This document shows positions 50,916-56,260 of a stretch of DNA of 64,000 nt, piece by piece. The DNA comes from Xylographa opegraphella. Its lineage: Eukaryota. How positions within the stretch are numbered: the first letter of the stretch is position 1; the number at the start of each line of letters is the position of its first letter. The DNA lies in contig JALDZX010000017.1 in NCBI GenBank assembly GCA_022813865.1, positions 186,001-250,000 of the forward strand, in the 5' to 3' direction. A program made the translations under genes and the position numbers. The notes below the pieces were generated by a model. That model was not told where the DNA came from and did not search any database. It saw nothing but the letters and a program-made list of their open reading frames with translations.

Positions 50916-51834
50916 CTCACACTGTGGTCGGGATACTAGGGAATGTCGGCTGCAGAAAGATACTCGATTGACTTATGTACAATTGATCCCCTGGGGATCG
51001 ACTTTCCTATCCAAGCAGTCCAGGTGGGGTAAAGCGAACGACTGAACAATTTGGAAAAGAGGTGCAGCGTGCAGCGTTAGCCGATTCATTGGAGGTTAAG
51101 GTATCTTGTCGTGTCTAGAGCATCCCCGGGGGATAAAGTGTGAATAAGGATAGGAAAGATGGAGCCGCATGTGCAACAAAGGCATGGACAGCAACAACAA
51201 TACTGGGAAAGCTTGGGTGGATCTTGCAAAGCCATAGCTTCGACGAGGATTGGCCGAAACAATTACCTAGCAAGAAAGATTTCTTGAATTTGCATGTGGA
51301 AAGTCAAGGCTAAAGACTAAAGGTTACCTTAGTGATCCCTCCCGCCAAGAGGGCATTTTTTCAAGGAAAGGTGCCAAGCACAAGCCGTCAATATCCGCAC
51401 CAGCCGCCGATATACGGGAGTAAGGTAGGTACCTAGGTATCGTTCAATAGATACGGAGTGGTTGGGAGTTCTAGGGTATCTTTAGGCACATGCTTTGCGA
51501 TCAATACCCTAAGGTAATCTACCTCCCTACCGTACTGACAACCAAGACACCTGGAGGTGGGAGCAAGTTCGATCGAGGTGTCGGAGGCATCGGCAATTGT
51601 TGTAGTGGGGGTGGGCTTCGGGAGCGGAACCTGGTTGACGCCAAGCCAGAGGTCAGGGGCAGGGGTCTAGCTCCAACGTCGCTGCACGAAATTCGGCTAA
51701 GATTTTTTCTGATATCAGTCTGCGCTGCGATAAGCAGGATCAAGATTACCTTGCAGCCACGGAGACGTGGATCACACGACACATTACCTATCCGTGCTCG
51801 CTGTTCGTGTATCAACAGCCTGGACTGATAGCCG

Positions 51835-51855
51835 CTGCTGCTGCTGCTGTTGCTG
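51835..51855 (+). repeat. (CTG)n microsatellite just upstream of the MPP10 start
   Basis: ctgctgctgctgctgttgctg. Confidence 0.8.
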
Positions 51856-51862
51856 GACACAA

Positions 51863-54136
51863 ATGGCGCCTGGAAGACTCAGCTCCCCGCCTTTGTCGCC
51901 GAGACCGGTAGCTGCCTACATCCACCCATCTGCTGGCGATCTACATCCTTCGTCAGACCAATTGTTGCTCTCGACATTATCCGACTTCCCCCACTCCTTC
52001 CTCCAGCCGCCCCCGACTTTGCATACTGCGGCTCTCGTTCTTGCCAAGCGTTATCTCGATTCACTGGCATCGTCAACCAGCCAGGCACAAGAGCAAAGAC
52101 TGCAAGATGCTCGACGAAAGAGAAAGAGGGCCAAGGATGACGAAGGCAATGCAAAGAATATTCTACGGCTGAAACAGGTGCATCTGGAAGGTTTCGCGAT
52201 CGACCAGATCTGGGAACAGGCTAGGCGGGTGTTGGATGCAAGCCGGGAGGAAATCGAAAGGTCCCTATCAGACCTATCAGACGTCTTGCCAACAGTCACA
52301 AAAGCGTCGAATGACTCGAAAAAGGATGTGCCTCAGGAGAATGTCAAGATGGTCAGGTTTGATGAGGATGGGTTTGAGATCGCTGATGAGGACGGGTCCA
52401 ATGAAGAATCTGAGGGAGACTTAGAGCTCGAGGATGCTTCGGATGCTGTAAATAATCTAGACAATACCGAGCTCGTCGAAAAGCTTCTAGATGGTGGTGA
52501 ACTCGATGACGAGGACGAAGATGAAAAAGGCGAGGATGTCGACGATGAAGAAGACATTGAACAAGGTGACTCAGATCTAGAGATGAACGAAATTGAAGAA
52601 GCCGAGACAGAAATATTCAAACCTGACAAGCACGGCCTGAACGATGGCTTCTTTTCCATTGACGAATTCAATCGCAACTCTGAATTTCTTGAGCAACAAG
52701 GCGCCCGAAGCGATCCTAATGACGGGGACGCCAGCGATGAAGAGGAAATTGACTGGGATGCGGATCCCATGACCACGACAAATGGAACTAGAAAGCGAAC
52801 TGACGGCAACGACAGTGACGAGTCTTCAGAAGACGAGGGGCCCACATTTGGTAACGCCGACCTCAACGCTCCGTTCTCCGACTCCGACACCTCTTCCGAG
52901 CTCGACACTGCCCTCGAAGACACCACCCTCTCCAACACCAACGCCATCAAATACGAAGACTTCTTCGCCCCACCACCCCTCCCCACCAAAAAGCGTACTC
53001 AGCGCCCTCTTCCAAAAACCCAGCCCCCGCCCACCGAAGACGACATCCAGCATACAATTTCCGCCGTCCGACGCGAGCTTTTCGAAGACGAGCCCTCCCC
53101 GTTACCCTCTGAGGCAGAAGACGCCCCCAACACCTCCAGCACAGCAAACAACAACCTCTCCACCCACCAAAAACGCCAAGCGGCACTCGCCTCGCAAATT
53201 CGCGCCCTCGAAGCAGCCAATGTCGCCAAGCGCGACTGGACCCTCGCCGGCGAAGCCCGCGCCGCCGAGCGCCCGCTCAACTCCCTCCTCGAAGAGGACC
53301 TGGACTTCGAGCGCGCCGGCAAGCCCGTCCCCGTCATTACCGCCGCCGTCTCCGAGGACATCGAGGCCCTGATCAAGCGCCGCATCCTGGCGCGACAGTT
53401 CGACGAGGTATTGCGCCGCCGGCCGGACAGCCTGCGCAGCGCTCCGGGTGGGGAGGCCGTGCGCCGTGGCCGCATAGAGCTCGACGACGCGAAGAGTAAG
53501 GTCGGTCTCGGCGAGTTGTATGCGGAAGAGCATCTCCGAAACGTGGACCCCGAGGGCTTCGTGGATACGCGCGACGCGGCGGTGGGGAAGGCGCATGCGG
53601 AGATCGAGCGCCTGTGGGGCGAGGTCAGTGCTAAGCTGGATGCGCTGAGTAGCTGGCACTATCGCCCGAAGCCGGCGGAGGTCGTGGTCCGGGTGCTGGG
53701 TGATGTGCCGGCGGTGCGGATGGAGGATGCGCGGCCGAGCGGGGTGGGTGGCATCGGGGCGGGTGAGGGCGCGAGTATGCTGGCCCCGCAGGAGGTGTAC
53801 GCGGGCGGGGAGGGTGCGGAGAAGGGTGAGGTGGTGAGGGGCGGAGCGGTTGTGGGGAGGGAGGAGATGACGAGGGAGGAGAAGTTGAGGAGGAGGAGGA
53901 GGGAGAAGGAGAGGGGGAGGAAGATGGAGGGGAAAAGGAGCGAGGGTGGGAAGAAGGGGGGGGAGGTGGCTAAGGTGGTCGAAGGGAAGAGGAAGACGGG
54001 GGAGAAGGAAGTCGTGGCGGAGTTGAAGCGGGGTGGCGTGAAAGTCATCGGGAAGAAAGGCGAGGTGAGAGATGTGGAGGGCAAGATGGTCAAGGGTGGG
54101 GAAAGTTCGAGAGGCGGTGGGGACTTTAAGCTGTAG
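51863..54136 (+). CDS. MPP10: U3 snoRNP protein Mpp10
   Basis: DQIWEQ, acidic tract, LNDGFFSIDEFN, WTLAGE...RPLNSLLEEDLDF, LDALSSWHYRPKP and LAPQEVY. Confidence 0.95.
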   Translation: MAPGRLSSPPLSPRPVAAYIHPSAGDLHPSSDQLLLSTLSDFPHSFLQPPPTLHTAALVLAKRYLDSLASSTSQAQEQRLQDARRKRKRAKDDEGNAKNILRLKQVHLEGFAIDQIWEQARRVLDASREEIERSLSDLSDVLPTVTKASNDSKKDVPQENVKMVRFDEDGFEIADEDGSNEESEGDLELEDASDAVNNLDNTELVEKLLDGGELDDEDEDEKGEDVDDEEDIEQGDSDLEMNEIEEAETEIFKPDKHGLNDGFFSIDEFNRNSEFLEQQGARSDPNDGDASDEEEIDWDADPMTTTNGTRKRTDGNDSDESSEDEGPTFGNADLNAPFSDSDTSSELDTALEDTTLSNTNAIKYEDFFAPPPLPTKKRTQRPLPKTQPPPTEDDIQHTISAVRRELFEDEPSPLPSEAEDAPNTSSTANNNLSTHQKRQAALASQIRALEAANVAKRDWTLAGEARAAERPLNSLLEEDLDFERAGKPVPVITAAVSEDIEALIKRRILARQFDEVLRRRPDSLRSAPGGEAVRRGRIELDDAKSKVGLGELYAEEHLRNVDPEGFVDTRDAAVGKAHAEIERLWGEVSAKLDALSSWHYRPKPAEVVVRVLGDVPAVRMEDARPSGVGGIGAGEGASMLAPQEVYAGGEGAEKGEVVRGGAVVGREEMTREEKLRRRRREKERGRKMEGKRSEGGKKGGEVAKVVEGKRKTGEKEVVAELKRGGVKVIGKKGEVRDVEGKMVKGGESSRGGGDFKL

Positions 54137-54599
54137 TGTCAAGGAGTTCATCATATTGATGATCAAGATTGTGAATATCAGCGTCAGACTCATGTGTAAA
54201 GTAATATCGCATTGACTCTCGTGGATTTCAATGATGCTTCATATCAATTGCACGCAATTGCCGCGGCAGTGCTGCCTTTTGGAGCGCTCATCTGAGGACA
54301 CGACGCCCTGATCTGCTCATGTCTGGCTTCAGCATGTGCCTTGGGCTCATCCCATCCATCGCGCGTTGATCATATCCATGAGCTAATAGAGTCGGGAGTA
54401 CCGACGGAAGGGAAATATTGTGCTCTTTCTTTTATACTGGATTAATAATGGTTGAAGCAGCCAGCGGAATATGCTGTCTACAAGTGCAATCGACTGGATG
54501 GCCGTCACTCTCTCCCGGCCTCTTCCTGGGAGTGGATAACATATCTTGTTATCAGTAGAAGGAAGCCACTGTGAATCAGTCAGTTGTCGAGCCCATCTG

Positions 54600-55618
54600 T
54601 TATCGTCCCATGTTCATAGCTTGAGTCATCGCCAGGCGTTTGCTGTACGGACTAAGACTTCTTTCTTTCCTCGGCAGACGAGCACGAGACTTTGATGCTG
54701 CGAAGTCATCCTTCCTGTCATGTTCTTGCGGCGGATGTTTGGTTCCACCGTTGCGGCCATTATCATCCGCTCGCCGTGAGCGTTCATGAAGGTGCCTACT
54801 GCCCCGATTTCCAACACTCCGCCAGTCCGGACTTAAGGAGTGCCTGTGACGCGCTATGCTATCTCTGTCCATGCTATTGCTTCTGCTTCGAGGAAGCCTT
54901 CTCCGCTCAATCGGCGTTGGATCTCGACCTCTGTTATCAGGACTGACGGAAGACCTACGACGTCTGGTGTTCCGATCATCATCATCTTTGGCCCACTCTT
55001 TCGAGTTGCGGATATATGAGTCATCAGAGGAGTAAGAAGGCTCTGAGATGGACGTGCTCCGTCTTCGTTTGAGGCTCCCACTTCCGAAAGAAGGCCGCGC
55101 CTCGCCAAGCCTGGGTCGCTTCGGCGAGACTGAGCGGGACAAATTGGTGGATATGGTTGAGACAGACGTCGATGAGTAGGACGAGACAGACCTAGATCTC
55201 TTTCGACTGCCATGTGCGGGTTCGTTCTCATCTATCGAACGCTGTCGACCTCTCTCCTCTGCTTTCTTGGCTAGTTGCTCGTCCGCGACACCTTTTCTAA
55301 TGACATTCAGCATATGTTCAGCAAAGTCAAAAGACTAAATATCATGTACTTTCGCAATAAGTCGTTAGGCACATCGCTCATTAACTTAGGAGCGAGCTTT
55401 GGGTTGTTTAGCTGTTGCGTTCTTGACGGTCGAGAAGCGTATGGGCGTTCTTGCGTGGTCGCTTTACATTCATAGCTGTAGTGCCGTGAAGCTACCGTCA
55501 GCTGGGGCTTCAGCTAATGGATCACCAGTGGCTTATCTTTTTTCAGGCACTTCTGACACAAAGTCTGAGCACTTGCTCTAGATGGACCACCGGAGAAAGG
55601 ACCACGACTTCGAATCAT
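54600..55618 (-). CDS. CCHC zinc-knuckle, Arg/Ser-rich protein (ZCCHC10-like)
   Basis: Spliced CQKCLKKGHYSYEC..QERPYASRPSRTQQL, an RS-rich tail and RSLSPYSKRLAMTQAMN. Needs the AT-AC intron 55486-55536 and a second GT-AG intron. Confidence 0.88.
55486..55536 (-). other. Non-canonical AT-AC intron (51 nt)
   Basis: AAA AAA G|ATAAGC...GCTGAC GGTAGCTTCAC|GG CAC TAC. Removal restores CX2CX4HX4C; retention gives an in-frame TAG. Confidence 0.8.
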
Positions 55619-56260
55619 TGGAAAGTTATTGATGCACAGGAAATAAGACAAAAGGAAGGATGGTGCGACGATTTCTATGCAGTCAGCAATGCAGTCATTA
55701 TACAGAAATACGGTGCAGTAGTGCACAGCTGGCAACTCTGTATACTGTGATCTATATTTGTCACTTTAGGAAGCAAAGGGACCCACCACTGGAAGGAAGC
55801 TTCAGGCTTCCGCCGACAGCACCTCGCAAGGCCAGTTAGCGTTGTGCTAGTCCATAAGGAACCTTTTCTACAAATTTCAGAAACGACCGAACGTTCATCA
55901 CCACCGCTTCGTGCCCACTGAGAATTCAATAAGGGGAGTCCACGTCTGTCGGTTGCGACCTCGAAGTGATGGACTAGCCAGTTTCTGGACACACACACCG
56001 CCTTTCTAATCTCAGCCTGATACGTCCTTGCTGACACTTGCCCATATGCTTCGCATGGCGAGCTTCCAGAATGTCCAGGGATTCATTCTCAATACCTTTG
56101 GAGCTGTTTGATTTGCATTCTCCTTAACTTGTTGCTTTCTCCAGACCAACTTATACACTCCTTTACCAGGCTACGAAGGTCGACTTCGGACCTTATTTAG
56201 ACCTTTCGTTTGAGAATTCTCGCCTCCGGAAGAATCGAGATTATCTAGTTTTTGATTTGA

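Follow-up and report, generated by a model that had tools for sequence, protein, structure and literature searches.

An AT-AC intron with U2-type signals in the zinc knuckle of a ZCCHC10-like gene of Xylographa opegraphella, conserved among Pezizomycotina

The gene and its knuckle junction

We analyzed a 64,000-nucleotide (nt) stretch of the Xylographa opegraphella genome (GenBank assembly GCA_022813865.1, contig JALDZX010000017.1, positions 186,001 to 250,000; hereafter "the window," with positions counted from its first letter). The minus strand of the window carries a small gene with its ATG at 55618 and its TAA at 54602..54600, made up of three exons and two introns. The first intron is bounded by AT (55536-55535) and AC (55487-55486) and interrupts a zinc knuckle. 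We consider it very probable that this segment, 55536..55486 on the minus strand, is a constitutive U2-type ("AT-AC type II") intron in a ZCCHC10-like zinc-knuckle orthologue with an Arg/Ser-rich tail. The parts of the gene and the signals of the intron are as follows.

55537..55618, minus strand: exon 1, 27 codons plus the first base of a Gly codon; encodes the first knuckle half, C-x2-C-L-K-K, and has the 3' end AAA AAA G
55486..55536, minus strand: AT-AC intron, 51 nt, phase 1, within the knuckle Gly codon; starts with ATAAGC and ends with TTCAC
55531..55536, minus strand: 5' splice site, ATAAGC after exon AAG; the GTAAGT consensus except for A at +1 and C at +6
55497..55502, minus strand: branch-site motif GCTGAC, with the putative branch A at 55498 and 12 nt from there to the intron end
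55486..55488, minus strand: 3' splice site, CAC (pyrimidine-A-C)
55350..55485, minus strand: exon 2, 136 nt; begins GG CAC TAC AGC TAT GAA TGT and encodes the second knuckle half, H-Y-S-Y-E-C
55297..55349, minus strand: intron 2, 53 nt, ordinary GT-AG (GTACAT...TTAG)
54600..55296, minus strand: exon 3, with the Arg/Ser-rich tail, a conserved C-terminal RSLSPYSKRLAMTQAM motif and the TAA stop

With both introns excised, the gene reads as an open frame of 304 codons. With the 51 nt kept in the transcript, translation yields ...KKDKPLVIH followed by a stop, as had been stated in an earlier reading of this DNA made from its letters and open reading frames (the sequence-only reading). The N terminus of the predicted protein matches relatives such as P0003, and exon 2 also encodes a conserved RPSRTQQL...DLLR stretch. 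The knuckle belongs to the Pfam family zf-CCHC_3 (PF13917, a 41-position profile), which all listed relatives carry. Residues 15-27, from exon 1, correspond to profile positions 1-13, and exon 2 alone matches positions 15-41 (44.8 bits; E = 1.1e-11; cut-off, 27). With positions 1-13 on one side of the junction and 15-41 on the other, exactly one residue is required between them, and the joining of G to GG supplies one, a glycine. Removal of the AT...AC segment thus restores the canonical knuckle within the 304-codon frame, which is what the sequence-only reading had proposed.

We enumerated the alternatives by taking all GT-AG and GC-AG pairs of at least 20 nt that leave the frame open through exon 2 and asking whether the product retains the knuckle pattern CX2CX4HX4C. 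None of the 49 frame-open pairs kept the knuckle, in agreement with the earlier failure to find a GT-AG pair that preserves it. When all possible deletions were enumerated, 13 in total kept the knuckle spacing, each of 51 nt and shifted by -10 to +2. Among these 13, only the AT-AC deletion places Gly before His, as in the family. An in-frame TAG 6 nt upstream of the acceptor, which had been pointed out as an alternative 3' end giving ASRH, is present.

The sequence-only reading had also allowed for an assembly error at the intron termini. A Logan contig of the public run X1 (83,275 nt; word depth of 163) covers 54500-55900 with 0 differences. Run X1 perhaps comes from the same sample as the window, and it therefore argues against assembly error only and does not represent an independent organism. 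A contig piece from a second organism (run X2) reaches the last four intron bases, where ...TCAC is kept; the X2 pieces are three, short and less than 90% alike. Contigs of a third run, X3, gave no match to the region. An Rfam scan of the window gave no matches at the gathering score.

The closest full-length relative, P0003 (JGI; contig of 1376 nt), is 304 amino acids long and identical to the spliced model at 245 of 304 residues. It is a contiguous open reading frame with both junctions exactly like those of the spliced model and may represent an assembled transcript or an intronless gene. On the plus strand, an 800-codon open frame at 51734-54136, with acidic stretches and a Lys/Arg/Gly-rich tail, converges on the 3' end of the gene.

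Conservation of the junction among relatives

To follow the intron in orthologous DNA, which was sampled within leotiomyceta, we scanned metagenome contigs by alignment of the exon-2 peptide. The scan gave 417 matches, and the best 80, all close relatives, were analyzed by locating both knuckle halves in each locus and reading the sequence between them. An AT-AC intron lay at the same phase-1 position in 59 loci, three had AT-AA (L004, L013 and L078), and 17 had no intron, only the Gly codon. The remaining locus (L045) is incomplete, being cut by the contig end, and the surviving 3' end of its intron reads AC. No GT-AG intron was found at the junction in any of the 80 loci, 62 of which bear an intron. 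The conserved AT..AC termini that the sequence-only reading had proposed to look for in orthologous loci were thus found (59/80). After clustering of the loci at 93% or higher exon-2 nucleotide identity, 43 clusters remained (30 AT-AC, 2 AT-AA and 11 intronless).

Together with the window, the intron-bearing loci hold 39 distinct introns, between 46 and 59 nt long. At a median identity of 0.61 between pairs, the interiors are scrambled, and nothing but the splice signals is conserved in them; among relatives, exon 2 and the C-terminal motif show 77-93% conservation. The intron length is a multiple of three in 15/39 and not a multiple of three in 24/39, and the segment must therefore be removed to make the protein. 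The intronless orthologues encode an intact G-H-Y-S-Y-E-C. They group with Pleosporales-like (Paraphoma, Alternaria and Pyrenochaeta) and Botrytis/Monilinia-like proteins and with a few other lineages.

Several further observations concern intron loss and unusual termini. Most intronless loci also lack intron 2 (L032, L038, L055, L060, L074-L077, L079, L080 and L026). In these the frame stays open as far as the C-terminal motif, and several of them lie on contigs of 20-230 kb. This pattern suggests joint loss of both introns, for example, via a spliced copy. Intron 1 alone was lost in L017, L030, L033, L059 and L067. In the AT-AA lineage (L004, about 1050-1115, and L013), the protein P0015, 93% identical to L004, reads through the junction as D...G-H, which suggests that a lineage very close to the AT-AA loci has an A...G (AT-AG) intron. 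The protein P0345 reads through a 63-nt insertion at exactly the same junction, and the first and last codons of the insertion are both Gly, implying G...G termini. P0345 falls near Ramularia (Mycosphaerellales), its nearest named relative being Ramularia collo-cygni (P0302), and relatives there have a contiguous knuckle; we rejected P0345 as an outgroup on account of this nested position in the protein search. A scan of genome contigs returned two irrelevant matches only, both to bacterial metagenome-assembled genomes (L081 and L082). These are weak tblastn matches to the knuckle region (46-55% over 20-35 residues) and are probably unrelated CCHC motifs.

Predicted proteins carry the mark of the same intron. 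A protein search with exon 2 returned 515 relatives, and we classified the best 120 at the junction. Thirty-one of them read through the intron as ...K-[KR]-D....R-H-Y-S-Y-E-C, a signature in which Asp is encoded by the exonic G plus AT and Arg by the intron-terminal C plus GG. Another 31 lack the first knuckle half and have Arg before His, and 4 lack it and have Ser before His, all belonging to the AT-AA lineage of L004. One (P0015) reads through as D....G-H, one was left unclassified, and the knuckle is contiguous in 52. In total, 67/120 of the closest predicted relatives are mis-modelled, with the intron read through, the start placed inside or downstream of it, or a false junction; the earlier expectation that gene predictors would mis-model this gene is therefore met by most of its closest relatives. 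A contiguous knuckle was present in 329/428 of all fetched proteins, a set in which two of the searches used full-length queries that favour good models. A separate set of models, distinct from read-through and truncation, uses a false in-frame GT-AG pair that deletes the zinc-binding His (11/428 database proteins: P0278, P0299, P0308, P0320, P0325, P0329, P0333, P0338, P0423, P0424 and one more).

A representative protein search gave 989 matches, with the best 150 of 989 listed, all at E < 1e-23. The read-through signature, or the truncated form with Arg before His, occurs in Lepidopterella (Dothideomycetes), Tricladium (Leotiomycetes), Loxospora (Lecanoromycetes) and Candelaria (Candelariomycetes), lineages that we looked up. 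One or the other is also found in Cladophialophora, Emergomyces, Histoplasma, Penicillium, Lasiodiplodia, Phyllosticta, Lachnellula, Daldinia childiae and Thyridium. We take Cladophialophora, Emergomyces and Penicillium to be Eurotiomycetes and Thyridium and Daldinia to be Sordariomycetes. Judged from these predicted proteins, conservation spans at least six classes of Pezizomycotina, and given the named species of these classes, the intron would be at least as old as leotiomyceta.

One orthologue appears to have a junction supported by transcripts. In an RNA sequencing (RNA-seq) study of Fusarium graminearum (Zhao et al., 2013; PMC3577648), the supplement gives the gene FGSG_10073 on the minus strand an AT-AC intron of 52 nt at 738569-738620, revised from an earlier model intron at 738572-738860. 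The gene is one row among 28 genes with noncanonical sites. In the same article, seven genes with noncanonical sites are figured and their sites are Sanger confirmed; FGSG_10073 may be one of the seven. The primer table lists primers for FGSG_10073, which suggests that its junction was tested. The reverse primer, when reverse-complemented, translates to HGGRHQ, and this string occurs in P0197, an F. graminearum member of the family. FGSG_10073 is thus apparently an orthologue of the window gene. When the F. graminearum primers were compared with the 80 loci, none matched; a single match with 5 mismatches looks like chance.

Splice signals, proposed mechanism and rival explanations

The donors of the 39 distinct introns are ATATGT (16), ATAAGT (9), ATGAGT (5), ATAGGT (4), ATAGGA (2), ATACGT (2) and ATAAGC (1, the window). 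A purine (R) at +3 and G at +5 are present in 39/39 each, and T at +6 is present in 36/39; the donors are the fungal GTRNGT consensus with A at +1. Judged by position counts, they agree with U2-type donors in the sense of Sheth et al. (2006) at every position apart from +1. A CTRAY branch motif (Y, pyrimidine) occurs in 34/39 introns, and the remaining 5 carry near-variants such as CTGAG and CTTAC. In all 34 CTRAY introns the distance from the branch A to the intron end is 10, 11 or 12 nt (standard deviation of 0.59). The last three bases are YAC in 37/39 and YAA in 2/39, and the base ahead of the terminal AC or AA is always a pyrimidine. In 11/34 introns, AG dinucleotides occur downstream of the branch A and upstream of YAC; their use would add residues and break the knuckle. 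For intron 2, which we modelled heuristically as a control, a GT-AG or GC-AG intron was called at the same place in 61/81 sequences, with 3-17 nt from branch A to intron end (standard deviation of 3.3) and lengths of 42-141 nt. The sequence-only reading had likened the signals of the AT-AC intron to those of the other introns in the window; for this likeness the comparison covered intron 2 of the same gene and published fungal intron statistics.

The exon side of the donor is equally regular. The last full codon of exon 1 (Lys/Arg) ends in A (CGA, AAA or AGA) in 41/41 distinct intron-bearing contexts, and exon position -2 is A in 41/41. The exon ends in AG in 41/41 intron-bearing contexts and in 5/12 intronless contexts (Fisher P = 5e-6), and at the neighbouring Lys codon AAA and AAG are used freely. 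As read from these sequences, the exon-end AG is under selection as the exonic part of a U1/U5-type donor, and it is so only in genes that have the intron. Neither the U12-type donor /ATATCCTT nor the U12-type branch site TCCTTAAC was found in the 39 distinct introns (ATATCC, 0/39; TCCTTRAY, 0/39), which bears out the earlier remark that the signals are unlike the U12 consensus. The claim of an obligatory AT-AC intron with major-spliceosome-type signals is supported by the comparative DNA, the proteins of relatives and the junction of the F. graminearum orthologue.

The position, termini and signals of the intron are conserved at the DNA level. In the mechanism that we infer, the major spliceosome would remove the intron in the window organism, recognizing the 5' splice site like an ordinary fungal donor, with the exon AAG and all U1- and U6-contacting positions kept except +1 (in the window, also +6). 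The standard fungal CTRAC branch site would be used, and the first YAC 10-12 nt downstream of the branch A would be the 3' splice site. In the second catalytic step, a pair of A at +1 and C at the last position would stand in for the G-G contact that normally joins the two terminal intron bases; opposite A at +1, the productive last base would be C (or A) and not G. The termini would have been inherited across Pezizomycotina (leotiomyceta). A change at a single end would break splicing, which would leave lineages two courses, to retain A...C (occasionally A...A) or to drop the intron entirely. The lack of GT-AG among the 62 intron-bearing loci, against 11 clusters with loss, fits such a trap, in which both ends must change together.

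An extension of this explanation is that major-spliceosome splicing of the intron is inefficient and that regulated retention acts as an autoregulatory or nonsense-mediated decay (NMD) switch, as the sequence-only reading had suggested. The nonconsensus base at +1 should slow splicing, as would be expected from the yeast mutant work cited in PMC5029451, retention always destroys the knuckle, and the termini have been kept for very long although the intron can be lost. We nevertheless regard such a switch as unlikely. The consequence of retention is not conserved among 41 introns (a stop inside in 21, a frameshift in 11 and an in-frame, stop-free insertion in 9), the loss of the intron in 11/43 locus clusters makes it dispensable, and the scrambled interiors offer no further conserved element. 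The suggestion gained no support from these data.

We are similarly doubtful about a converted U12 relic, the other origin raised in the sequence-only reading. Here the AT-AC pair would be the frozen remnant of a U12-type AT-AC intron that the ZCCHC10 family carried ancestrally. On the loss of the minor spliceosome in the ancestors of Dikarya, the major one would have taken this intron over, and the termini would have been kept for hundreds of millions of years because there is no single-step path to GT-AG. No U12 motif survives in the 39 introns, and the tables of human and mouse genes with minor introns in PMC6717393 list ZCCHC8 but not ZCCHC10. One supplement of PMC10639083 that we checked contained no ZCCHC10, and a literature search for ZCCHC10 together with minor introns found 0 papers. 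The proposal thus gained no support; as the orthologous DNA comes from leotiomyceta, with none from U12-splicing fungi, it stays compatible with the data.

It is far less likely that the real junction is a shifted canonical pair, with a donor 4 nt into the segment (the GT of ATATGT in orthologues) and, as acceptor, the AG that lies within the Tyr-Ser codons and 10 nt into exon 2. The 11 His-deleting proteins described above use this model; its product is in frame and lacks the knuckle His (...C-L-K-R-D-I-Y-E-C), and the pair is available in 32/40 distinct locus contexts. In the other 8/40, GT or AG is missing. The shifted donor has no consensus (G at its +5 in 0/37), and in the window, where CACT comes after a GC, it makes a poor donor of the GC type. 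Intronless loci, too, have AGY as the Ser codon (13/13), so the AG reflects codon usage and is not a splice signal. Intronless orthologues keep the G-H-Y-S-Y-E-C that this junction would disrupt, the Pfam profile includes those positions, and the F. graminearum supplement (PMC3577648) gives AT-AC and 52 nt.

We find splicing by the minor spliceosome scarcely credible. A U12-type intron would account for the AT-AC termini, and the short, fixed branch-to-end distance of 10-12 nt resembles that of U12-type introns. Against it stand the absence of both U12 motifs from all 39 introns, the fit of the donors to the U2 consensus everywhere but +1 and the selected exon-end AG; moreover, surveys find no U12 small nuclear RNAs (snRNAs) or U12-type introns in Ascomycota/Pezizomycotina, as reported in PMC2846911.

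No more credible is a segment that is never removed, whether because the gene is a pseudogene, because translation starts downstream or because the termini are sequencing errors: retention does give a stop after 7 codons, but the contig of run X1 is identical at a depth of 163, the same termini recur in 30 orthologous clusters with scrambled interiors, exon 2 and the C-terminal motif are conserved while 24/39 intron lengths are not multiples of three, and a domain without exon 1 loses both first Cys residues. Four further candidates were rejected. An Ire1-type (hacA-like) cytoplasmic intron does not fit the anatomy, in that a spliceosomal donor, YAC and the CTRAY branch site are conserved in orthologues. 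At 51 nt, the segment is too short to be a nested (twin) intron that two successive canonical splicing events would remove. A-to-I editing could make the donor GU-like and cannot turn the AC acceptor into AG, and a protein isoform with the segment retained is at odds with lengths that are multiples of three in only 15/39 introns.

Several points weigh against the reading of a constitutive U2-type AT-AC intron. Splicing at these exact sites in the window genome is something that we infer from sequence, and the absence of U11, U12, U4atac and U6atac from the window organism is taken from the literature. The pattern AT-R-N-G-Y...CTRAY...YAC occurs 20 times in the window and about 30 times in shuffled sequence (a GT-AG-type signal pattern occurs 37 and 38 times, respectively). 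The splice-signal pattern alone is therefore not above chance; it is in restoring the domain exactly, and in being conserved in orthologues, that the intron exceeds chance. The best 80 of the 417 loci are biased towards close relatives, and the contiguous-knuckle proteins (329/428) fit AT-AC, GT-AG or intronless genes alike. In at least one lineage, that of P0345, there may be a GT-AG intron at the knuckle junction, by conversion or new gain. The heuristic model of intron 2 made no call for 9/81 sequences, and some of its GC-AG calls are doubtful. The link to FGSG_10073 rests on a 6-residue primer translation together with intron length and gene size, not on the sequence of that gene, and the forward primer was not found in P0197, where it may lie in the 5' untranslated region.

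If the proposed mechanism is correct, the locus amounts to a test, run by nature over a long time, of how the first and the last base of an intron contact each other, with the other donor positions and the exon-end AG tightly held. For intron evolution it would be an example of a splice-site pair that is trapped, open to loss but almost never to conversion, and it provides a defined locus for asking whether U12-type introns left relics in fungi. For annotation, allowing AT-AC at the knuckle site would repair the gene model in many fungal annotations.

Relation to known AT-AC introns

The U2-type AT-AC class is known, and the Fusarium orthologue has been tabulated once; the breadth of conservation and the scale of misannotation appear not to have been described before. 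Our literature search, which did not extend to bioRxiv supplements and figures, found no paper on a conserved AT-AC intron in the ZCCHC10-like family or in Pezizomycotina generally. In RNA-seq data, AT-AC junctions have been counted at 69/14,305 in Trichoderma longibrachiatum and at 0.03% in a set including A. niger. The FGSG_10073 intron resembles the window intron in its AT-AC termini, its length of 52 nt, the small size of the gene and an earlier model that was likewise wrong. It differs in how it was presented, the consulted parts of PMC3577648 containing nothing on the gene family, the knuckle, conservation or mechanism.

The nearest counterparts by class are the type II AT-AC introns of animals. 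According to Sheth et al. (2006; PMC1557818), U2-dependent AT-AC introns number 15 in human, 6 in mouse and 3 in fly, while worm and Arabidopsis have none; the introns of SCN4A and SCN5A are experimentally U2 dependent, with borders conserved from human to pufferfish, and some xylanase genes of filamentous fungi are hypothesized to contain U2-dependent AT-AC introns. Metazoan type II introns have a strong /ATAAGT consensus, as stated in PMC5029451. Like the animal type II introns, the window intron combines AT-AC ends with an otherwise U2-type donor and no U12 motifs, and it is rare and long conserved. Unlike them, it comes from a fungal lineage reported to lack the minor spliceosome, its orthologues are very short (46-59 nt), and the fungal CTRAC branch site is fixed 10-12 nt from the end. 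Many of its orthologues are documented here; among them the entire intron was lost repeatedly, and none of the sampled loci has GT-AG at this site. U12-type AT-AC introns share the terminal dinucleotides and the short distance from branch site to 3' end with the window intron; they differ in their donor and branch motifs, which occur in 0/39 of the introns studied here, in the exon-side AG that is selected here, and in requiring a machinery that the host lineage is reported to lack.

Yeast offers a precedent for the joining of such termini by the major spliceosome. Yeast has no minor spliceosome, and an engineered AT-AC intron is spliced there (Parker and Siliciano, 1993, as cited in PMC5029451). 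Both the engineered AT-AC actin intron and the minor RPL30 AT-AC junctions of S. cerevisiae treated in PMC5029451 indicate that a major spliceosome can join /AT to AC/ without U12. These yeast cases, as described there, are artificial or concern 1-2% of transcripts, with a donor unlike the consensus. In contrast, removal of the window AT-AC intron is the only way to make a conserved protein.

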